Positions 23,149 through 61,243 of a DNA stretch of 64,000 nucleotides are shown piece by piece. The first letter of the stretch is position 1; each line of letters opens with the position of its first letter. The notes under the pieces are model-generated. The model did no database searches. It had not been told where the DNA came from and worked only from the letters and a program-made list of their open reading frames with translations. Source of the DNA: a virus. Both the position numbers and the translations under genes were made by a program. The stretch lies in the IMG/VR virus record IMGVR_UViG_3300045988_109366, positions 32,001 through 96,000 of that record; one strand, 5' to 3'.

Positions 23149-23442
23149 TTATTTGTTAAAAGTGTAATATAAATATAAATACATAAATTGAATAGGGCTA
23201 TTCACCATGCCCTTATCAGTAGGATCATCGTATTTGTCAAGCCAAAGACGAAGCGCCTCCCAATCGATATCCTTACGGTCACATACCATGCAGGCTAGGT
23301 TAGCCCCGAACGGCTCCCCGCCGCCGCTCAGCGAGCTATTAAACCTTTTGGCTAGTCTTTCCTTGAATCCCTTATCATACCAAATACCGGAGGTAGCGGC
23401 ATAGCAATAATAAGCGTTGTACTTCAGGTGATTATATACCAA
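23149..23442 (-). CDS. hypothetical protein; tracked TTG start lies inside the tnpB element end
   Basis: 97-codon ORF. The first 5 codons are encoded by the element terminus GGTATATAATCACC. The true start is uncertain. Confidence 0.4.
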   Translation of the reverse strand: MVYNHLKYNAYYCYAATSGIWYDKGFKERLAKRFNSSLSGGGEPFGANLACMVCDRKDIDWEALRLWLDKYDDPTDKGMVNSPIQFMYLYLYYTFNK

Positions 23443-23530
23443 TTTAAACCAGTATAATTTGACGCTTCACAGCCCCGGCCATCGCCGGTGACTCCACATC
23501 CCCTACCCGGTCCACCACCGGTGACGTATT
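23427..23530 (-). ncRNA. candidate omega-RNA (reRNA) scaffold of element B
   Basis: GC-rich hairpin-forming stretch (CCGG-TGGTGGA-CCGG, CCGG-CGATGG-CCGG) between the tnpB stop and the element end. The position matches where TnpB guide RNAs are encoded. Its 5' limit probably lies inside the ORF. Confidence 0.4.
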
Positions 23531-24646
23531 TTATTGGGTTAGAAGATTCTGTTTTTCTAACCCAAATTTCTTTATGTTCCTAGCGGCAAGAAGATCCCTA
23601 TCATTTACGGCTCCACAAGAAGGGCAAGTCCAGATACGATCGGATAATTTAAGATCCCGATGTATGTACCCACATCCGCACATCTTGGAGCTAGGTTCGA
23701 ATCTACCAACCCGAATCAAATTCACGCCCTTCCAATCCGACTTATAGCTTAATATTCTAAAGAACTCGCTCCATGAGCATGAAGCTATGCTATTAGCCAG
23801 CTTATGGTTCTTCATCATCCCCTCCACGTTAAGATCCTCAATAACCACGGTTTGGTTCTCGCCTAGGATATTGTTGACCACATGGTGCAGGAAGTTATGT
23901 CTTTGATTTGATATACGCTCGTATGCCTTAGCTACAGCTAATCTGGCTCTTTCTCTTCTTCGGCTTCCTTTTTGTTTGCGAGTTAATCTACGTTGTAAGC
24001 ATCTTAACCGTGCGGAAGACCTTTCAAGATATTTCGGGTTCTCGAAAATCGAACCGTTCGATAAGGTTGCGAATGTCTTTATCCCGACATCGATACCTAC
24101 AGCGGTATCCGGATTTATAGGAGACTTGTCCGGCAATTTGAGGCCGTTATCTACAAGGATACTGATATAGTACTTATTTGTAGGTGATTTAGATACAGTG
24201 ACAGTCCCTATTTTACCTTTAAACACTTGGTTTGAGTAGAATCTTATCCATCCTAATTTCGGTAACTTAATCCTGTTGTTATCGAAATCAATATGAACAT
24301 TGAGGATATTCTTGAACGATCTCCTTGATCCTCGCTTTGACTTGAATTTTGGGAAGCCTTTCTTTTCCCTAAAAAATCTGGTGAAAGCCTGATCAAGATT
24401 CCTTATTGACTGTTGCAGACATTCGTTAGACACCTCATTAAGCCAAGTATATTCCTCTTGTTTCTTCAAATCAGTCAGTTTCTTGCATAGATCAACAGCC
24501 GTAAGTGATTTTTTATCATCTTGATACGCTTCGATTTTTGTCTGCAAAGCCCAGTTATAGATAAATCGTGTTGATCCGAAAGTCCTCTCTATTAGAGAGA
24601 TCTGTTCGGATGTCGGATTTAGTCTATATTTATAAGCTTTTAGCAT
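23531..24646 (-). CDS. tnpB: TnpB RNA-guided endonuclease (IS200/IS605-type OrfB), apparently intact
   Basis: N-terminal MLKAYKYRLNPT. RuvC-I VGIDVGIKT, RuvC-II VVIEDLNVEGM, zinc finger CGCG..CPSCG, RuvC-III NDRDLLAARNI. Start set at M43 of the tracked ORF. Confidence 0.9.
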   Translation of the reverse strand: MLKAYKYRLNPTSEQISLIERTFGSTRFIYNWALQTKIEAYQDDKKSLTAVDLCKKLTDLKKQEEYTWLNEVSNECLQQSIRNLDQAFTRFFREKKGFPKFKSKRGSRRSFKNILNVHIDFDNNRIKLPKLGWIRFYSNQVFKGKIGTVTVSKSPTNKYYISILVDNGLKLPDKSPINPDTAVGIDVGIKTFATLSNGSIFENPKYLERSSARLRCLQRRLTRKQKGSRRRERARLAVAKAYERISNQRHNFLHHVVNNILGENQTVVIEDLNVEGMMKNHKLANSIASCSWSEFFRILSYKSDWKGVNLIRVGRFEPSSKMCGCGYIHRDLKLSDRIWTCPSCGAVNDRDLLAARNIKKFGLEKQNLLTQ

Positions 24647-24680
24647 ACTACTGTCTTTTGATACAAAGATGTGATATAAA

Positions 24681-24746
24681 AAGTAATTATATACGATTTT
24701 ACTTATGTCATACAACATAATAGTGTAAAGATGTATATAATTACTT
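24681..24746. repeat. 14-bp perfect inverted repeat (hairpin) at the left end of element B
   Basis: AAGTAATTATATAC at 24681-24694 and GTATATAATTACTT at 24733-24746, with a 38-nt spacer. Confidence 0.8.
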
Positions 24747-31547: not shown

Positions 31548-32246
31548 CTAAATCGACATTTTCAATCTTCTACCTAATTCTTTTTTTATATCCGATATCC
31601 TTTCGATATCCATCTTAACATCGCCTGTGATAGCGTATTCCTTATCCATTCTCTTTGGGGGATCCGGAAGCCGGCTTATGGCGAACAACCATGCCAGCTC
31701 CTTGTTCTTGTTCTCCCTAAGATACAAGTCAGACGTCATGCCATACATTTTTATGATCGTATCGAATAACGTTGATTCCGATAAACTCATATGCACGCTA
31801 TACACATTTGATGGTTTCCAGATCAAGTTATCCAATCTCATCGTATACTCACGTTTAAGATCTATGTGGGATATTACGGCCCTTACTATAGGTTCTTCCT
31901 TGAAGTTGGTGTTAGCCACAAACCAGATAAGCCTTTTTTCCACCTCCTTGATAGCTCCTGTATCCTTACCCGTATCGTTATATACCCCAACGATACGGTC
32001 CCGGATCCCCTCGACCTCCGGTGTCAGACCGGGTGTCTCTATCAGCATCAGCAGCGATCCTCCCCTTGGCGTTATCTTCCACTTCCCATTCTTCTGAAGC
32101 TCAATATAACCAGATGCTTTATAACTATCTATTTTCTCCTTTGGAATGGTGTTAGCCATCTCTTCTTTTTGCCGGATCATCAAAAGATATCCAACATCAG
32201 ACATCGTTAATCCTGATGTCATCATCTGTTCAAAATTTATATACAT
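31548..32246 (-). CDS. hypothetical protein
   Basis: 232-codon ORF in the replication module. Confidence 0.6.
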   Translation of the reverse strand: MYINFEQMMTSGLTMSDVGYLLMIRQKEEMANTIPKEKIDSYKASGYIELQKNGKWKITPRGGSLLMLIETPGLTPEVEGIRDRIVGVYNDTGKDTGAIKEVEKRLIWFVANTNFKEEPIVRAVISHIDLKREYTMRLDNLIWKPSNVYSVHMSLSESTLFDTIIKMYGMTSDLYLRENKNKELAWLFAISRLPDPPKRMDKEYAITGDVKMDIERISDIKKELGRRLKMSI

Positions 32247-35488: not shown

Positions 35489-35772
35489 ACCTTTTCTTCT
35501 ATCTCAACATTAAATAGATTGCAGAATCTATCAAAATTTCTGTTCTCTATTCTCATATCCTCCTCATACCTGTCAACCGATTTGATGAAATCATTATAAC
35601 AGTCCTCGCACATCCATTGATTGATTACCGCTACATAATAGCCCACGGACGTAGGTCTGTTACACATATCGCAAATACCTAAGCACCCATATCTGGTGAG
35701 CTTATCCATCATCTCCTGTCTTGTTATTTCAAGCACCTTGAATTTCTTGTAATTGTTAACTACCTTTGCCAT
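35485..35772 (-). CDS. hypothetical zinc-finger protein
   Basis: CDMC...CEDC. Confidence 0.5.
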   Translation of the reverse strand: MAKVVNNYKKFKVLEITRQEMMDKLTRYGCLGICDMCNRPTSVGYYVAVINQWMCEDCYNDFIKSVDRYEEDMRIENRNFDRFCNLFNVEIEEKV

Positions 35773-36712
35773 TGTAAATTTGTTTAATAATAAAATAATC
35801 CGCTATATCCATTCCCTCATTTATATTGGGTTTTGATTCTAGAAAATTACTTATCTCTATATTCATCCCCCTCATATCCTTGTCTACCTTCTTTCTCCAT
35901 TCGTTGAAAGCGTCGCCTTTATCAGGGTACAGGACTATCCGCCTCCTACCCAATGTCTCTATCATCTCCCTCTTCAACATATGGATACCGCCACAGGCCA
36001 TAAACAACCTACTAGGGTACACAATATTGCAGATAACAGCCGTCTTCTCTGACTCTACTATATACACCGGAGCGTCATTGGGATAGAAGTTGATAAGAAA
36101 CTCCCCGAACAGGCATTGCCTAAGCAGGTAATCCTGACCGTCCAGTATATGCACCCAACATACATGATCCATGGGAACCTTTACCCTCTTCCCGTCAGGC
36201 CCGTAGTCCATTATCTTCCCGGTCCGCACTACCCAATTCTTATCCAGTTGCCAGAACACACAGCACTTACCCCAGTCCCCTAATCTCATCATCCCCACCT
36301 TATACAAGCTAAATGCCCTATTGGTATGATACGACCCGAAGATATTGGATAGATAATCCTGAAGATCGGATGTCTCGAAAGGATTAAGCGTCTCAAACAT
36401 CTTGCTTACCGGAATGCAGTTGGCTATATCCGGATCCATAGGAGGTCTGTACCTCCTTAATACTTTGTTTGAATCGGTAAAAAGATCATTGTTCCCAAGT
36501 TCGCTCCCTGTTGGATATTTAAAGTAACCACATTTATTTTTATGATCACACATCCCAAACTGCTCTCCAACGATCTGACCGGTGGTTACGTCCACGTACG
36601 GCGTAAAACACTTATCCTTGCCGCATTGCGGGCACGTCAGCTTCCTTCTTGGCTTGCTATGATCCAGCTCATACCGATGAACGCTCTTATTGAACTCCCT
36701 AAATTCCATCAT
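35756..36712 (-). CDS. DNA primase (zinc-binding plus Toprim)
   Basis: CPQCGK..C zinc motif. Toprim E in VESEKTA and DxD-like YPDKGD. Confidence 0.65.
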   Translation of the reverse strand: MMEFREFNKSVHRYELDHSKPRRKLTCPQCGKDKCFTPYVDVTTGQIVGEQFGMCDHKNKCGYFKYPTGSELGNNDLFTDSNKVLRRYRPPMDPDIANCIPVSKMFETLNPFETSDLQDYLSNIFGSYHTNRAFSLYKVGMMRLGDWGKCCVFWQLDKNWVVRTGKIMDYGPDGKRVKVPMDHVCWVHILDGQDYLLRQCLFGEFLINFYPNDAPVYIVESEKTAVICNIVYPSRLFMACGGIHMLKREMIETLGRRRIVLYPDKGDAFNEWRKKVDKDMRGMNIEISNFLESKPNINEGMDIADYFIIKQIYNGKGS

Positions 36713-38659: not shown

Positions 38660-39151
38660 TTGCTGAAACGGTTGAGAGGACGTGAGAAAAGATTCGCTAC
38701 CATCGTGAATCACAGTATTAGCAAATGGCTTGTTGCGAAGGCCAAGAAAGAAAACAAGGGTATCGCTATCGAGGATCTTAAAAATATCCGATTCGGCATG
38801 AACTTCAAAAGACGAAACAAAACATTTCGAAGAAGAAGTAACTCGTGGAGTTTTTATCAGCTTCGTTCCTTTCTTGAATATAAATGCAAGATGAATGGAG
38901 TTAAGATCATTGCCGTCCCTCCGGCTTATACCTCGCAAACATGCCATGAATGCAAACATATAGGTATTCGCAATGGGAAGCGATTCCATTGTAAATATTG
39001 TGGCAATATTGCAGATGCGGACATTAACGCTGCTAGAAATATTGCTACATGGGGGTATGTAAACACCCATGAAAGATGGGAATTGTTGTCGTGTTCTATA
39101 CATGATGGTATTTCTACGTCTAAAGCCCATAAATCTTTAGTTTACGGGTAG
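38660..39151 (+). pseudogene. tnpB: tnpB 3' fragment (C-terminal half only)
   Basis: GIAIEDLKNI (RuvC-II), WSFYQLRSFLEYKCKMNGVKII, YTSQTCHEC..CKYCG (zinc finger), ADADINAARNI (RuvC-III). No N-terminal half and no ATG. Antisense to the surrounding genes. Confidence 0.7.
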
Positions 39152-40907: not shown

Positions 40908-41069
40908 GACATTTTGTTTTTGAATTAAATTAAATAAACATTATTAATAGTTAATACCATCCTTTCTTCTATCATTCATATTTATTCTTTTAAGTAATTA
41001 TATACAACCTTACACTACAAACATACTGAATTATTTTTATATATAAATAATAATCCATATATTCGTGCC

Positions 41070-42293
41070 ATGAGGCTAGTTGAACAACATATAATCAAGC
41101 AAAGCTCAATATATTACAATGAGATTCAAGATCTGTTGCATAAGTGCAAAAACTTATACAACAAAGGATTGTATGTTGTTAGACAACATTACTTTCAATA
41201 TAAGAATGATAATACCGTTAAGTATAAATACCTCAACTACTACCCTCTTGAAAAGAAGTTAAGAACAGAAGATGACGTTGACTATCGTGCTTTACCGTCA
41301 CCGGTAGCCCAACAGGTATTGATAATGGTCGACCAGAATTTCAAGTCCTTCTTCAATCTTCTTAATAAGAAAGGTAGAGGTGAATATTCTGAGAAAGTAA
41401 GAATACCTAAGTATCTTGATAAAGATGGGATGTTTATGGCTGTTTTCCCAACAACAGCCTTTTCTCAAAAATGGATAAAGCAAGGTATTATTAAGTTGCC
41501 AAAGCAATTCTCTTTCACCACGAGAACTAACAAGCAAAATATCCAACAACTCAGGTTCGTCCCTAAGAATGGATATATTATACTTGAAATCGTATATAAC
41601 AAGAAAGAGAAAGATCTTATATATGATAACGGTAATTACCTTGGTATTGATCTTGGACTTAACAATTTAGCATCTTGTGTATCAAATACCGGTTCCTGCT
41701 TTATCATCAACGGTAAGCCTCTAAAATCTATCAACCAGTATTATAATAAAAGATTAGCATATTTAAAATCTAAATTAAAAGACAATAAACAAGTCTCAAA
41801 GCAAATAAGGTCGTTAACCAACAAAAGGAATAACAAGATCAAGGATTATCTGCATAAAGCCAGTAGGGTATTGATTAATCATGTAGTCTCCAATGGCATT
41901 AATACGATCATAATCGGTCATAATAGATGTTGGAAACAAGAGATCAATATCGGAAAGCGGAATAATCAGAACTTTGTTTCTATTCCTTTTAATATGTTTA
42001 TCTCAATGATATCATATAAGGCTACACTTGAGGGAATCAATGTTAAGATCGTTGAGGAATCCTATACCTCAAAATGTAGTTTCTTGGATAACGAGCAGAT
42101 TCGTAAGCATGAGGAATATGTCGGAAGACGTATCAAACGAGGATTATTCAAGACATCTTCCGGCAATATTATTAACGCCGATATCAACGCTGCATTTAAC
42201 ATCATTAGAAAATCGGCAAAAGAAGCCTTCGATGTAAGTATCTTGCCAGAAGGTAGAGGGTTTTGGTGGAACCCGATACGGATTTCCGTATAG
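41070..42293 (+). CDS. tnpB: TnpB-family RNA-guided endonuclease, zinc-finger-less clade
   Basis: VEQHIIK...LYNKGLYVVRQ N-terminus. RuvC-I YLGIDLGLNN, IIIGHNRCWKQE, EESYTSKCSFLD, RuvC-III NADINAAFNIIRK. Confidence 0.85.
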   Translation: MRLVEQHIIKQSSIYYNEIQDLLHKCKNLYNKGLYVVRQHYFQYKNDNTVKYKYLNYYPLEKKLRTEDDVDYRALPSPVAQQVLIMVDQNFKSFFNLLNKKGRGEYSEKVRIPKYLDKDGMFMAVFPTTAFSQKWIKQGIIKLPKQFSFTTRTNKQNIQQLRFVPKNGYIILEIVYNKKEKDLIYDNGNYLGIDLGLNNLASCVSNTGSCFIINGKPLKSINQYYNKRLAYLKSKLKDNKQVSKQIRSLTNKRNNKIKDYLHKASRVLINHVVSNGINTIIIGHNRCWKQEINIGKRNNQNFVSIPFNMFISMISYKATLEGINVKIVEESYTSKCSFLDNEQIRKHEEYVGRRIKRGLFKTSSGNIINADINAAFNIIRKSAKEAFDVSILPEGRGFWWNPIRISV

Positions 42294-42339
42294 ATATATA
42301 TCATTTTACGATTTTAGTGTAAAATGGTATATAATCACC
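42252..42339 (+). ncRNA. candidate omega-RNA 3' scaffold of element A
   Basis: Overlaps the tnpB 3' end. Hairpins at 42258-42274 and 42276-42291 are conserved with compensatory changes in the copy at 45948-46037. Confidence 0.5.
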
Positions 42340-42753
42340 TACCCCAACATCTGCTCCATCTTCTTTAATCCAATTATCCGTATCGCAATGCCAACAATAT
42401 CCTGTTTTGGAATCCTCTTTATGAGAATGAGACCCACAAGTAGCGCACCAATAATTATCATCCGTATCGTATGCGTAGCTTTTATCCTCATGCATCTTAG
42501 CTACTCTGACCATTCTATCTTCTAGCAGTTCTTTTAGATAAGGGCATTCATAAGGTCTATCCTCCTCCCGTAATATCCAAAGCTCGATATCCGTCATCTC
42601 CCCCATCCTGTCCGTGCACATCCGCTCGGCGGCATGACGTACGCTATCTTCCGGCATCCCCGGGACTATCTCCCGGATCACTGCCTCCATCCTCTCTTGG
42701 TATTCGGTGTCTACCTTAGCCACCAAGCCTTCTAATTTATCTATTAAGCTCAT
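42301..42753 (-). CDS. hypothetical Cys-rich protein; last 12 codons encoded by the element A terminus
   Basis: 150-codon ORF. ...GADVGV|GDYIPFYTKIVK*, where the part after the bar is the reverse complement of the element end. Confidence 0.6.
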   Translation of the reverse strand: MSLIDKLEGLVAKVDTEYQERMEAVIREIVPGMPEDSVRHAAERMCTDRMGEMTDIELWILREEDRPYECPYLKELLEDRMVRVAKMHEDKSYAYDTDDNYWCATCGSHSHKEDSKTGYCWHCDTDNWIKEDGADVGVGDYIPFYTKIVK

Positions 42754-42760
42754 AATTTTT

Positions 42761-42775
42761 ATTGTATATAATTAC
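42761..42775 (-). promoter_or_regulatory. solo copy of the LE-type motif GTAATTATATACAAT
   Basis: 15-mer identical to 61214-61228. Lies 7 nt upstream of ATG 42753. Either a promoter or a solo terminus. Confidence 0.35.
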
Positions 42776-42960
42776 TATTTGATATTTATAATCTTTTGAT
42801 CTCTCATCTCATTCTTATCCTTGAACATCATTATCCTATTAACAATACCTTCCGATTCCATGTACGTCGAGAATCCATGTATCCTTAGATATTGAATAGC
42901 TGATAATGATTTCTCCAATATCTCCCTATACTCCATATCTGTTTTAACTGCTTTCTCCAT
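42775..42960 (-). CDS. hypothetical protein
   Basis: 61-codon ORF. Confidence 0.45.
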   Translation of the reverse strand: MEKAVKTDMEYREILEKSLSAIQYLRIHGFSTYMESEGIVNRIMMFKDKNEMRDQKIINIK

Positions 42961-45462: not shown

Positions 45463-45702
45463 ATCATTTTAGTTTAATCATTATACTTGTGGAAAATAAA
45501 ATCCGCACATTCTCCGGGGAGTGTTCCTGCGTCATTACAACGGTAGAATCCTTGTGTTTCCAAATCTACATCTACCGGATAACCTTCTGCTGCTTCCAAG
45601 AAGCGTTTGATTTCCTCACATTCTTCATCCGTTAATCCAGTGTAATCATCATTGATTAACGGGCAAGCCCAATAAATCGGGAGCCTGTATCTTATTATCT
45701 CT

Positions 45703-46037
45703 GGCGATTATATACTATTTTACACCAGATATGTTATAAAACATACAGATGTTATTTAATTTCATATTCTTCTTTTCTAACTTTGTTTCACCCAATCGAA
45801 TCACATAGTCCCTTGTTTCGGACAAGACGATTGGGTAAAAGAGGTCTTTGATATAAGGTTTTACCCTAAAAAAATATTCGTTGGGTAAGTAAAATCAAAA
45901 ACGTTTTGTTTAGTAAAAGAATCCGGCGATCTCACTTTTGAGCAACCGGTAGAGGGTATTGGTGATACCCAGTACGGATTTTCGTACAAATGCATATCAT
46001 TTCTCATTTTTTTGGTGTAAAATGGTATATAATCACC
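45703..46037 (+). mobile_element. non-autonomous (MITE-like) derivative of the element A family
   Basis: 24-bp TIRs with 22/24 identity. 8-bp direct repeat TTATCTCT at 45695-45702 and 46038-46045. No ORF inside. The left ~45 nt and right ~130 nt are homologous to element A. Confidence 0.8.
45948..46037 (+). ncRNA. orphan omega-RNA-like module (no adjacent nuclease gene)
   Basis: About 80% identical to 42252-42339. Hairpins at 45954-45970 and 45972-45987 keep their pairing through double substitutions. Confidence 0.45.
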
Positions 46038-46049
46038 TTATCTCTATAT

Positions 46050-46445
46050 TCATAACTTCATCAATTTACAATATGAATCTTCAAATATAGGGATCAAACC
46101 TTGTTCCCTAAAATACGCTGTTGCAACTTTAAAAGCGTACAAAGGGTTCACTTCTTGTATCTTATTCTTTTTTACTCCCTGGGTAATAATTGGATTACAA
46201 CAATAGAATTTTTCATTACCTAAACTTCCAAATACGCTATCTACATTATACTCATAGCAATTAGTACCTCCCAATATCAGCAAATCACATCCAGTCTCTC
46301 TGGTTCCAAGGATAAACGATTTATTCTTATTTGCTGGAAGCATGAATATTTCCTTATCCATATTAAACCAATCATTCTGATTATATTTTACATCCCGGAG
46401 AACGATCTCATCAATCTCATGGGCATATTCTTCTTGTGTTTTCAT
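46050..46445 (-). CDS. hypothetical protein
   Basis: 131-codon ORF. Confidence 0.6.
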   Translation of the reverse strand: MKTQEEYAHEIDEIVLRDVKYNQNDWFNMDKEIFMLPANKNKSFILGTRETGCDLLILGGTNCYEYNVDSVFGSLGNEKFYCCNPIITQGVKKNKIQEVNPLYAFKVATAYFREQGLIPIFEDSYCKLMKL

Positions 46446-51211: not shown

Positions 51212-51610
51212 TCAAATCTCCTTAAATAATTTTTTGTTATGATTATCGCTATTATACCATTTATCAATATTATCGTACTGCTTTGGATAAACCCCATAAG
51301 ACCTACACCACCTAGGTAACGGCCCGTTCAGCACGTCTAACGCCGTCGCAAGATCGAACGTAGCTCCCTCCTTGACACAACACCCCGATCCACTTCCACA
51401 GCTCGGTATATAGGCTCTGCTATATGCTACGCTCATTCCATATTCCCCATGACTCAGATACCCGATGTTAGGCGAATCAGGGAAGGCGTAATACAACATT
51501 ATATAATCACCCTTACTCCAACCTCTATTATAAGTATCATCCTGCCACGCAAAAACCCTGCAACCGGCTTCTTTCAGTTCCGCTGCCGCTCTTCTTAAAA
51601 CATTGTCCAT
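51212..51610 (-). CDS. hypothetical protein
   Basis: 132-codon ORF. Contains the 12-mer GGTGATTATATA, which is identical to the element terminus. Confidence 0.55.
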   Translation of the reverse strand: MDNVLRRAAAELKEAGCRVFAWQDDTYNRGWSKGDYIMLYYAFPDSPNIGYLSHGEYGMSVAYSRAYIPSCGSGSGCCVKEGATFDLATALDVLNGPLPRWCRSYGVYPKQYDNIDKWYNSDNHNKKLFKEI

Positions 51611-57318: not shown

Positions 57319-57810
57319 ATGTTTAGGCGCAGGACTTCTTCCGGTAAGATCCACTACCGTGTTAATATAAACAAGAATATGTGTCTTGGCGTTGTAGATA
57401 TATATATTGATAGGAAGCCATATCAACCTGGTTTTAACGGATCTTATCTTGATATATATCGCGATAAGAAGATAAAAACTATAAGCATAAGTGGCCAGAT
57501 ATCATATCTAAATCCGAAAAATGAGTACAATGTTATTTTGGGCATAAGTGGAGGTATTATAGAGGGAACCCTTACGTATCAATATAATTCGGGTATGCAT
57601 TGCGAGTTGGCTAATAAGGTGATATACGGGAATAGGATAACTAATTTTGTTCCTGTAACGGAGATAGAAGATCCTGGGAAGATCATTAATTTCACTTACA
57701 GATCTGAATTACAGACTCAGGTTTTAGATGAAAGTCATGTAACTTGGGATGGTGATTATATAAACGATAATTGTATAGTAACTGATCTTTGTTCGGGATG
57801 TGAATCTTAA
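57319..57810 (+). CDS. hypothetical protein; probably begins at ATG 57257 if the G9 tract were one G longer
   Basis: 163-codon ORF. The upstream ORF 57257-57307 would become in-frame with a +1 change in the G9 tract. Confidence 0.55.
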   Translation: MFRRRTSSGKIHYRVNINKNMCLGVVDIYIDRKPYQPGFNGSYLDIYRDKKIKTISISGQISYLNPKNEYNVILGISGGIIEGTLTYQYNSGMHCELANKVIYGNRITNFVPVTEIEDPGKIINFTYRSELQTQVLDESHVTWDGDYINDNCIVTDLCSGCES

Positions 57811-61194: not shown

Positions 61195-61213
61195 TTTATT
61201 CAAAGATCTATAA

Positions 61214-61228
61214 ATTGTATATAATTAC
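61214..61228 (-). promoter_or_regulatory. solo copy of the LE-type motif GTAATTATATACAAT upstream of tRNA-Arg
   Basis: Identical 15-mer to 42761-42775. Lies 20 nt upstream of the tRNA 5' end. Confidence 0.35.
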
Positions 61229-61243
61229 CAAACAATATTTTAG

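Follow-up and report, generated by a model that had tools for sequence, protein, structure and literature searches.

An IS1595-type element carrying tnpB and a candidate guide-RNA scaffold in a phage genome

TnpB is the ancestor of Cas12. Nearly all that is known of its biology comes from IS605 and IS607 elements, which excise without a scar and so allow the nuclease to cut the empty donor site and have the element copied back. Element A, a 1347-bp segment between inverted ends, raises the question of what moves a tnpB gene packaged in this way, and of what the nuclease might do for its carrier. It lies in a 64,000-nt stretch of viral DNA (IMG/VR record IMGVR_UViG_3300045988_109366, record positions 32,001–96,000; hereafter the window, whose coordinates are used throughout) that matches epsilon crAss-like phages at 83% identity over part of the region. 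We conclude, with a probability of about 0.8, that A is a non-autonomous element of the IS1595 (DDE transposase) family with a TnpB nuclease gene and a 3′ guide-RNA scaffold as cargo. This carrier architecture is well supported; from it we infer a possible role in RNA-guided homing. The features on which the argument turns are as follows.

40993–42339, plus strand: element A, 1347 bp, non-autonomous IS1595-type element with terminal inverted repeats, tnpB and a candidate guide-RNA scaffold
40993–41016, plus strand: left end (LE) of A, terminal inverted repeat AGTAATTATATACAACCTTACACT, starting AG where the family has GG
42316–42339, plus strand: right end (RE) of A, terminal inverted repeat AGTGTAAAATGGTATATAATCACC, also the 3′ arm of a terminal hairpin
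41070–42293, plus strand: tnpB of A, 407 aa, RuvC residues D194/E330/D371, RuvC-III motif NADIN, no zinc finger
23427–24745, minus strand: element B, same ends, LE starting AG, no target duplication
45703–46037, plus strand: miniature element, 335 bp, 22/24 inverted ends, no open reading frame (ORF), with the whole 114-nt 3′ module at 45923–46037

Ends, target duplications and transposase

A sequence-only reading of the locus had described a repeat-bounded element that carries only tnpB and shares its termini with a miniature copy, and this description holds. The LE and RE of A show 19/24 inverted identity, and the RE differs from that of the miniature (46014–46037) at 1 of 24 positions (23/24 identical). 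The RE recurs more loosely at 45703–45726 and 23427–23450, and the LE at 24722–24745 with 2 mismatches; in a control with 100 shuffles of the sequence, 0 such matches were expected. Three elements with the same ends are thereby present in the window: A, B and the miniature. Less survives of the claim that the sequence just inside the LE (AAACATAC.GA) is common to A and the miniature, which comes to 10/11 bases at an offset position (BLAST E value 2.3); the solid similarity between the two consists of the ends and the last 90–114 nt. No tnpA was found in the 64-kb window.

The termini recur well beyond the window, a check that the earlier reading had itself named. Scanning IMG/VR with the end pattern returned at least 119 stretches, mostly 80–160-kb gut-phage contigs, in which plus and minus hits were paired and flanks inspected, and a scan of bacterial genomes returned at least 120 loci, mostly of Bacteroidota (genera among the matches listed: Alistipes, Rikenella, Tidjanibacter, Parabacteroides, Bacteroides, Chryseobacterium and Flavobacterium). 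The family consensus, GGTGATTATATACNANTTTACACC, stands at both ends of units. Among the matches listed, perfect 8-bp direct repeats flank many units of 1317–1349 bp and 323–452 bp (for example loci L006/7 with TACTATCT, L029, L040, L042, L054, L063, L064 and L082). Homologous copies of A in other phages (1344–1349 bp) have such duplications too, the A-type examples being L006, L029, L040, L054, L063 and L082. Inverted ends together with an 8-bp duplication point to a DDE transposase, not to the single-strand mechanism of IS605 or the serine recombinase mechanism of IS607.

The transposase itself is found in longer units with the same ends (L059, 3510 bp; L097, 2830 bp; L103, 3360 bp). These encode a protein of 307–309 aa with the DDE_Tnp_IS1595 domain (Pfam PF12762; E 2.9e-42 and 3.8e-45); of two transposases tested, one scored 20.2 bits (E 6e-4) for an N-terminal Zn_Tnp_IS1595 zinc ribbon (PF12760), short of the 25.4-bit cut-off. 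A DDE_Tnp_IS1595 protein adjoins the repeat in 5 further phage loci, giving at least 8 phage loci in all, and among the matches listed it occurs in at least 26 bacterial loci, with the repeat typically ~80–100 bp upstream of its start. Complete bacterial transposase-carrying units (1.85–6.0 kb) have perfect 8-bp duplications in 9–10 of 14–15 cases, again among the matches listed. The IS1595 family is defined by 8-bp duplications and a DDE_Tnp_IS1595 transposase domain, and a terminal 5′-GG has been described for the related Merlin elements (PMC8101967). The shared ends, the duplications and the transposase in longer copies thus make A a non-autonomous IS1595-family member and, because tnpB carriers and miniatures share these ends but lack a transposase, they must be moved in trans; for A, this would mean mobilization by an IS1595 transposase. 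Members of the lineage are found both in Bacteroidota and in the large gut phages that infect them.

The three phage-borne transposase copies (L059 1973–5482, L097 9431–12260 and L103 1462–4821) also contain passenger genes, among them an outer membrane protein (OMP) β-barrel-like gene, DUF5640 and a DnaJ-domain protein. All three lack a target duplication.

The earlier reading had already remarked that the architecture is not that of IS605/IS1341, and the symmetric 24-bp ends and the 8-bp duplications of the family bear it out. A canonical tnpB-only element of the IS1341 group of IS200/IS605, moved as single-stranded DNA by a Y1 TnpA and only incidentally similar at its ends, would account for the carriage of tnpB alone, the Pfam OrfB_IS605 match of its product and a left flank ending in TTA, like the TnpA target; a true Y1 tnpA plus tnpB element even lies in the same intergenic region of the relative L003. 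This explanation is already contradicted and scarcely credible: the symmetric ends are common to unrelated TnpBs and to miniatures, the family of A makes 8-bp duplications and has no Y1 gene associated with its ends, and the ends of the IS605 element in L003 are unrelated. Moreover, IS200/IS605 elements have neither inverted ends nor duplications (PMC13565253).

We give just as little credence to the termini being phage regulatory boxes, promoter- or terminator-like, that bracket accessory genes with no transposon involved. Their core, ATTATATAC, does resemble boxes 12–27 nt upstream of some phage genes (for example at 42765, 56897 and 36739), and the repeat could double as an inward-facing tnpB promoter. 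However, there is only a handful of such boxes in 64 kb, most looking like repeat stubs, and the presence/absence polymorphism with exact 8-bp duplications and the linkage of the ends to a transposase in bacteria already contradict boxes as a full explanation. Promoter boxes were also rejected as the main explanation on the placement of the motif: the core occurs 21 times in the window, for the most part in element ends or stubs of the repeat, and immediately before a gene in only ~3 cases.

The nuclease and its structured 3′ module

TnpB-A is intact, under strong purifying selection and of the TnpB/Cas12f fold. It matches OrfB_IS605 (E 2.9e-23) and Cas12f1-like_TNB (E 1.4e-12) in Pfam, both above curated cut-offs, and PHROG 506, ‘transposase’ (E 6e-50). 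The residues D194, E330 and D371 are invariant in 24 homologues (51–87% identical). There is no CxxC...CxxC zinc finger and there are no CxxC pairs in residues 335–370; the finger is not strictly defining of TnpB, because the text of PMC10691335 documents its loss in some large TnpB branches. A single-sequence search of the PDB with TnpB-A gave no match, and a homologue-profile search matched ISDra2 TnpB and Cas12f. Foldseek related an AlphaFold2 model (predicted local distance difference test (pLDDT) 86.1, predicted template modelling score (pTM) 0.72) to AsCas12f, ISFba1 TnpB, ISDra2 TnpB and Fanzor2, with E values of 1e-14 to 1e-17 and template modelling (TM) scores of 0.57–0.65. Compared with eight relatives, the ratio of non-synonymous to synonymous substitution rates (dN/dS) is 0.05–0.11, with dS up to 1.3. 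Profile and fold, together with the intact D-E-D triad, uphold the earlier identification of the 407-aa protein as a zinc-finger-less TnpB with RuvC motifs. RNA-guided cleavage of DNA by this protein, dependent on a target-adjacent motif (TAM), is a prediction.

Upstream of the tnpB ATG by a few nucleotides lies a −7-type box (TACATTTG in L004 and L006, TATATTCG at 41055–41069 in the window). The Bacteroides-type −7 promoter box is TAnnTTTG, and its presence would fit Bacteroidota hosts and a near-leaderless tnpB mRNA.

The same ends enclose other TnpBs, as element B illustrates.

23531–24646, minus strand: tnpB of B, 371 aa, with zinc finger, DRD motif and HTH_OrfB_IS605 domain
24682–24745, minus strand: repeat–spacer–repeat palindrome of 64 bp that forms the left end of element B

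Elements A and B have only the 25-bp ends in common, and their TnpBs are 24% identical. Counted among the fetched phage loci, four TnpB lineages occur inside these ends: 406–407 aa (A-type), 403–404 aa (42% identical to A), 371 aa (B-type) and 402 aa (61–69% identical to B). They represent two major clades, which the text of PMC10691335 distinguishes by NADxN and DRDxN motifs. The nearest relatives of TnpB-A outside the family ends (P0104, 55% identity) stand directly after a 190-aa Resolvase-domain gene and are therefore of IS607 type. Such differing origins within one shell indicate that TnpB modules were captured more than once.

The P0104-type loci also speak for a different reading, in which A is itself an IS607-type element, moved by a serine recombinase in trans without target duplication and with its inverted ends as recombinase-binding sites; that copy A has no duplication would agree with this. 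It is nonetheless very improbable. The 24-bp ends are missing from P0104-type loci, and no pair of family ends was found to enclose a serine recombinase. What they do enclose, in other copies, is a DDE_Tnp_IS1595 transposase, with 8-bp duplications outside, and A-type copies with perfect 8-bp duplications exist.

Further tnpB material was seen in passing. Antisense between minus-strand genes, at 38660–39151 (plus strand), the window has a third tnpB remnant, reduced to the C-terminal half with RuvC-II, a zinc finger and ADADIN; its identity is 34% with B and 33% with A, and it has no family ends nearby. Two thirds of the 507-aa protein P0039 align with TnpB-A at 88% identity, and the protein has HNH-type endonuclease domains (PF01844, PF14279 and PF14239), suggesting the insertion of an HNH gene into tnpB or a fusion of the two. 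Two opposite TnpB ‘transposases’, 18% identical, have been reported in some epsilon crAss-like phages, without an analysis of their ends (PMC11054128).

Element A closes with a structured module.

42226–42339, plus strand: structured 3′ module, 114 nt, five helices by RNAalifold, candidate omegaRNA scaffold

Several observations bear on this module. First, in 15 copies the last ~50 nt of the A-type ORF are nearly invariant, third codon positions included, while codons upstream vary freely; synonymous third-position differences amount to ~37% in the gene body and 11–16% in the last 23 codons. Second, the final helix predicted by RNAalifold, of 16 bp, pairs an internal partial repeat with the inner 13–16 nt of the RE, so that the structure ends 7–8 nt before the element boundary and AAUCACC is left between the terminal hairpin and the flank. 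Third, a covariance model of the module (R1) matches every miniature tested (E 1e-14 to 1e-26), including that of the window (45923–46037; 86 bits, E 1e-17). In the combined alignment of full-length and miniature copies, 93.8% of cells are paired, compared with at most 50% in slid-partner controls, and 13 pairs are changed on both sides; compensatory swaps in helices 1–4 separate the full-length from the miniature clade, even though the miniatures have no ORF.

The terminal hairpin with the RE as its 3′ arm occurs in all four TnpB lineages and is absent from the ends of transposase-carrying copies. A relative without family ends has a short terminal hairpin and an 8–9-nt tail at the same place, and Rfam gave no match to the 3′ module. 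We read the module as a guide-RNA scaffold in which the transposon repeat would have replaced the ancestral last hairpin.

Units of 51 bp with a repeat–loop–repeat form (GGTGATTATATACCATTTTAC GATTTTA GTGTAAAATGGTATATAATCACC) occur in L010 (1633–1683), L013, L014, L021, L026, L034, L036 and others. They consist of the left repeat fused to the A-type terminal hairpin, lie ~40 bp from the position of the A site of the window, upstream of a 92-aa gene, and look like deletion scars of A-type elements.

Target choice, the site of A and a possible homing function

The predicted guide and the comparison of occupied with empty sites involve four further features.

42301–42753, minus strand: neighbouring gene, 150 aa; native length 138 aa, with codons 139–150 and the stop inside A (42301–42339)
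42340–42359, plus strand: predicted guide-forming flank TACCCCAACATCTGCTCCAT, its use as a guide being a prediction
45695–45702, no strand: left copy TTATCTCT of the target duplication of the miniature, preceded by TTA at 45692–45694
46038–46045, no strand: right copy TTATCTCT of the same duplication

Fifty unique sites with perfect 8-bp duplications, among the matches listed, define the target preference. C and G are nearly excluded at positions −2 to T3 and T6 to +2, giving the consensus wA/TAAnnTTA/Tw (slashes mark the junctions) and AT-only junctions. When 13 unique A-type and miniature insertions are oriented by their RNA module, the empty-site bases before the duplication are T in 12/13, then T or A, then A in 13/13, and the resulting TWA stands upstream in 12/13 compared with 6/13 at the mirror position (Fisher p = 0.03). 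A symmetric transposase preference should not depend on orientation; an asymmetry of this kind is what a TAM would be expected to leave. The earlier suggestion that left flanks ending in TTA are TAM-like thus stands in its orientation-dependent part and gives way, for the rest, to a symmetric AT-only preference of the transposase. The TWA is indirect as a TAM-like signal, and cleavage by TnpB-A next to it is a prediction. A 2-bp TA duplication of IS630/Tc1 type was rejected: TA flanks several duplication-free copies, but the family duplicates 8 bp and the position preferences explain the TA.

The miniature has a clean insertion history, with empty sites holding a single copy of TTATCTCT in L002, L093, L096, L152, L154, L173 and L205. 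The site of A is more complex. A lies antisense to its neighbouring genes, as had been noted, and has rewritten the C terminus of one of them: the product reads ...GADVGV and then GDYIPFYTKIVK up to the stop, from the right end of A, the RE (42316–42339) encoding 8 of the 12 extra codons. The homologue in MT839900.1 has 138 aa and ends ...DVGI. Of 80 loci fetched as relatives of this gene, 79 could be assessed, and in 77 of these the stop directly follows codon 138; only L131 and L205 carry an element abutting codon 138 with the same 12-codon extension, and L096 represents the same occupied site. Element-free relatives, which the earlier reading had wanted for comparison, therefore exist, and its account of the last 12 codons as coming from the element end is confirmed.

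Also as noted earlier, copy A has no target duplication, its flanks TTCTTTTA and TACCCCAA matching at 3/8 positions. Among the matches listed, perfect duplications are retained by 8/12 phage miniatures, 11/37 phage units of 1.1–1.4 kb and 0/4 phage units of at least 1.8 kb, and by 9/14 bacterial units of at least 1.8 kb. Longer elements retain them less often, and phages less often than bacteria, a pattern compatible with homing and co-conversion or with copies that exchange flanks by homologous recombination. An inversion between A and B was rejected as the source of the missing duplication at A, since the flanks do not cross-match and the two elements share only 25 bp.

Eight relatives have an element-free allele with both flanks of A, separated by 8 extra nucleotides, TAATTACC; L205 has identical flanks plus the element. 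The reverse complement of TAATTACC is GGTAATTA, followed by TAC, and forms a stub similar to nucleotides 1–11 of the repeat (GGTAATTATAC). A likely history would start with insertion at TTA/TACCCCAA/CAT, obeying the TWA rule and parting the stop codon from the neighbouring gene. Slippage between the left end and the stub would then have deleted 16 bp, the left copy of the duplication included, and, in the lineage of the window, given the AG start of the stub to the LE of A. Alternatively, the stub GGTAATTATAC may be the scar of a nearly precise excision. Fresh transposition is an improbable origin for copy A at this site, which it probably reached through recombination or a secondary deletion.

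The first base of the LE bears on the same history. The LE of the close relative L067 (TnpB 96% identical) starts GGTAATT, so the G-to-A change at position 1 in A is derived. The left ends at 40993 (A) and 24745 (B) both begin AG, are preceded by TTA and share a 28-nt junction, TTAAGTAATTATATACA.C.TTACACTA, and the close relatives L067, L118 and L109 begin GG, which may mean that one end converted the other, or that the terminal base was inactivated twice in parallel.

The intergenic region that holds A is also an insertion hot spot (L003 (MT839900.1) 150–1966, L170 near 3944, L103 1462–4821). L003 contains the true IS605-type element there, with Y1 tnpA and a frameshifted tnpB, and the others a transposase-carrying IS1595 element.

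What the nuclease might do is suggested by the flank beyond the RE. The 20-mer TACCCCAACATCTGCTCCAT occurs once in the window. In the closest element-free relatives (L127–L133, neighbour protein 96–100% identical), which read GATGTTGGGGTA/TAATTATT, the same 20-mer is preceded by ...AATTA, and in the occupied allele it is preceded by ...AATCACC. A 20-mer preceded by TWA in one allele and by AATCACC in the other would supply the self/non-self logic of TnpB homing. Across the element, the window joins an L127-like gene to an L180-like downstream region, a junction consistent with spread by recombination. Transcription through the RE into the flank would yield the guide TACCCCAACATCTGCT..., with which TnpB could cut the alleles of co-infecting phages that lack the element and have T-W-A in front of the 20 nt; recombinational repair would then copy the element in, amounting to homing, or a gene drive, between phages, with the miniatures as guide-only riders.

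On a broader view, which we hold only tentatively and rate below an even chance, one IS1595-type shell in crAss-like gut phages has repeatedly captured IS607-like and IS605-like modules, rebuilt its RE into their last hairpins and spawned guide-only miniatures, forming a system of two layers. The DDE transposase would seed sites at TWA-flanked AT-rich targets, and TnpB, guided from full-length and miniature copies, would drive the insertions through phage populations by cutting element-free genomes at co-infection. Such a system, if real, would explain the frequent lack of duplications in phage copies.

Several points weigh against the reading of A as a mobile IS1595-type carrier with a working guide. 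The window contains no IS1595 transposase; copy A has no target duplication; and the LEs of A and B both begin AG, so both copies may no longer be transposase substrates. No clean empty site of the duplication type was found for A among the relatives examined and, given this and the 8 extra nucleotides TAATTACC, the history of copy A is reconstructed, not observed. On the RNA side, a single split accounts for most of the covariation that separates full-length from miniature copies, which therefore amounts to few independent events, and the compensatory changes in the terminal hairpin could reflect concerted evolution of the inverted repeat, not selection on the RNA. The TAM asymmetry comes from 13 sites only, and guide, TAM and homing are all things that we infer from sequence.

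Some of the same facts could be taken for an immobilized, domesticated TnpB: a fossil IS1595-type carrier whose nuclease and fixed-flank guide are kept as a weapon aimed at related phages or as a regulator. This concerns the present function of A and not its origin. The AG starts of A and B against GG in close relatives, the missing duplications of both, the lack of a transposase in the window, the strong purifying selection, the same occupied junction kept in four genomes with two flank backgrounds, and a guide that perfectly matches element-free relatives would all agree with it. However, the L029 copy, 95% identical, has a perfect 8-bp duplication, so the lineage was recently mobile, and the RE and RNA module are intact. 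Competitor killing and homing would both follow from the same cleavage and are inseparable here. Overall, we consider domestication unlikely, if far from negligible, and retain the non-autonomous IS1595-type carrier as the preferred account of A.

Known systems, the miniature element and stray repeats

TnpB in DDE transposons is already described in the text of Altae-Tran et al. 2023 (PMC10691335), according to which six TnpB branches (DDE-1 to DDE-6) are tied to DDE transposases, all with inverted terminal repeats; tnpB lies within 250 bp of the transposon end, and solo TnpBs share ends with transposase-carrying copies and are inferred to have moved in trans. Element A is alike in having tnpB ~250 bp or less from the end of a transposon with terminal inverted repeats and solo copies moved in trans. 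It differs in its transposase family (IS1595), in its crAss-like gut-phage hosts, in ends common to at least four TnpB lineages from two major clades, and in a family whose RE is built into the terminal RNA hairpin and whose guide-only miniatures are abundant. The DDE families named for TnpB in a 2026 review, which notes a weak association of TnpB with DDE transposons, are ISL2, IS630 and IS1031 (PMC13565253). IS1595 is not mentioned in that text or in that of PMC10691335, its supplement apart, and our literature search for TnpB with IS1595 found no functional link. The combination of tnpB and IS1595-type ends is a rarely described pairing; the IS1595 partner, the multiple captures, the repeat-built hairpin and the guide-only miniatures appear to be new details.

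With IS1595 insertion sequences (Siguier et al. 2009) and eukaryotic Merlin elements, the family of A shares 24-bp inverted ends starting 5′-GG, 8-bp duplications, a DDE_Tnp_IS1595 transposase, with a possible zinc-ribbon-like N-terminal region, in autonomous copies, passenger genes and miniature derivatives. Unlike them, A has no transposase and carries as candidate cargo an RNA-guided nuclease with its RNA; copy A, moreover, lacks a duplication and has a mutated first base. The IS607 tnpA (serine recombinase)–tnpB family, the type of the nearest relatives of TnpB-A outside the family ends, resembles A in its NADxN RuvC-III motif, missing zinc finger and structured 3′ RNA, but A has no serine recombinase, its ends differ and its family duplicates 8 bp.

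Fanzor and TnpB in eukaryotic transposons with terminal inverted repeats, and IS630-linked TnpBs of giant viruses, likewise place a nuclease in a symmetric-ended DDE transposon, with a guide RNA that reaches the inverted repeat and a TAM related to the insertion site. By contrast, A resides in a prokaryotic phage, its family duplicates a variable 8-mer in place of a fixed TA, and the TAM-like TWA lies upstream of the duplication instead of being the duplication itself. The logic proposed for A is that of the free-standing homing endonucleases of T-even phages (intronless homing) and of IS605/TnpB gene drive on plasmids: a co-infecting genome is cut by the nuclease at its element-free allele, and the element is then copied across, flanks included, during repair. 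What A recognizes would instead be determined by its insertion site and read by way of an RNA guide.

This family bears on the question of whether, and in what way, a cut-and-paste DDE transposon with target duplications profits from its TnpB. It offers a compact natural test case, with the same ends present with and without transposase, four TnpBs in one shell, miniatures made of ends and guide scaffold, and many pairs of occupied and empty alleles in abundant human-gut phages. Small TnpBs that lack a zinc finger and use a short, A/T-rich TAM might be drawn from it, and if phages that co-infect a cell do pass on the element by RNA-guided homing, this could shape the mosaicism of crAss-like phages.

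The miniature of the window (within 45703–46056) sits after codon 5 of a 78-aa gene that is intact in L002 (4876–5112). From its start, the interrupted gene reads MNIEIR into the repeat and then stops, and the remainder has no in-frame start; the miniature has probably inactivated it. The 16 nt after the RE of the miniature, TTATCTCTATATTCAT (46038–46053), recur exactly at 35851–35866, inside a 318-aa primase-like gene (35756–36712, minus strand), both copies encoding MNIEI; shuffles expect 0.02 matches for this 16-mer. The copy at 35851 is kept in relatives, never adjoins an element and is preceded by ATTAC, not TWA, and no donor miniature beside it was found in IMG/VR. It may be a chance match or a potential self-target.

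Partnerless stubs of the outer 12–19 nt of the repeat lie at 42762–42776, 61206–61229 and 51500–51511 (all minus strand) and at 57751–57762 (plus strand). Conserved in ~24 relatives, the stub AGTAATTATATACAA stands 10 nt ahead of the ATG that starts the neighbouring 138-aa gene; one relative has a complete transposase-carrying element that terminates at this very spot.

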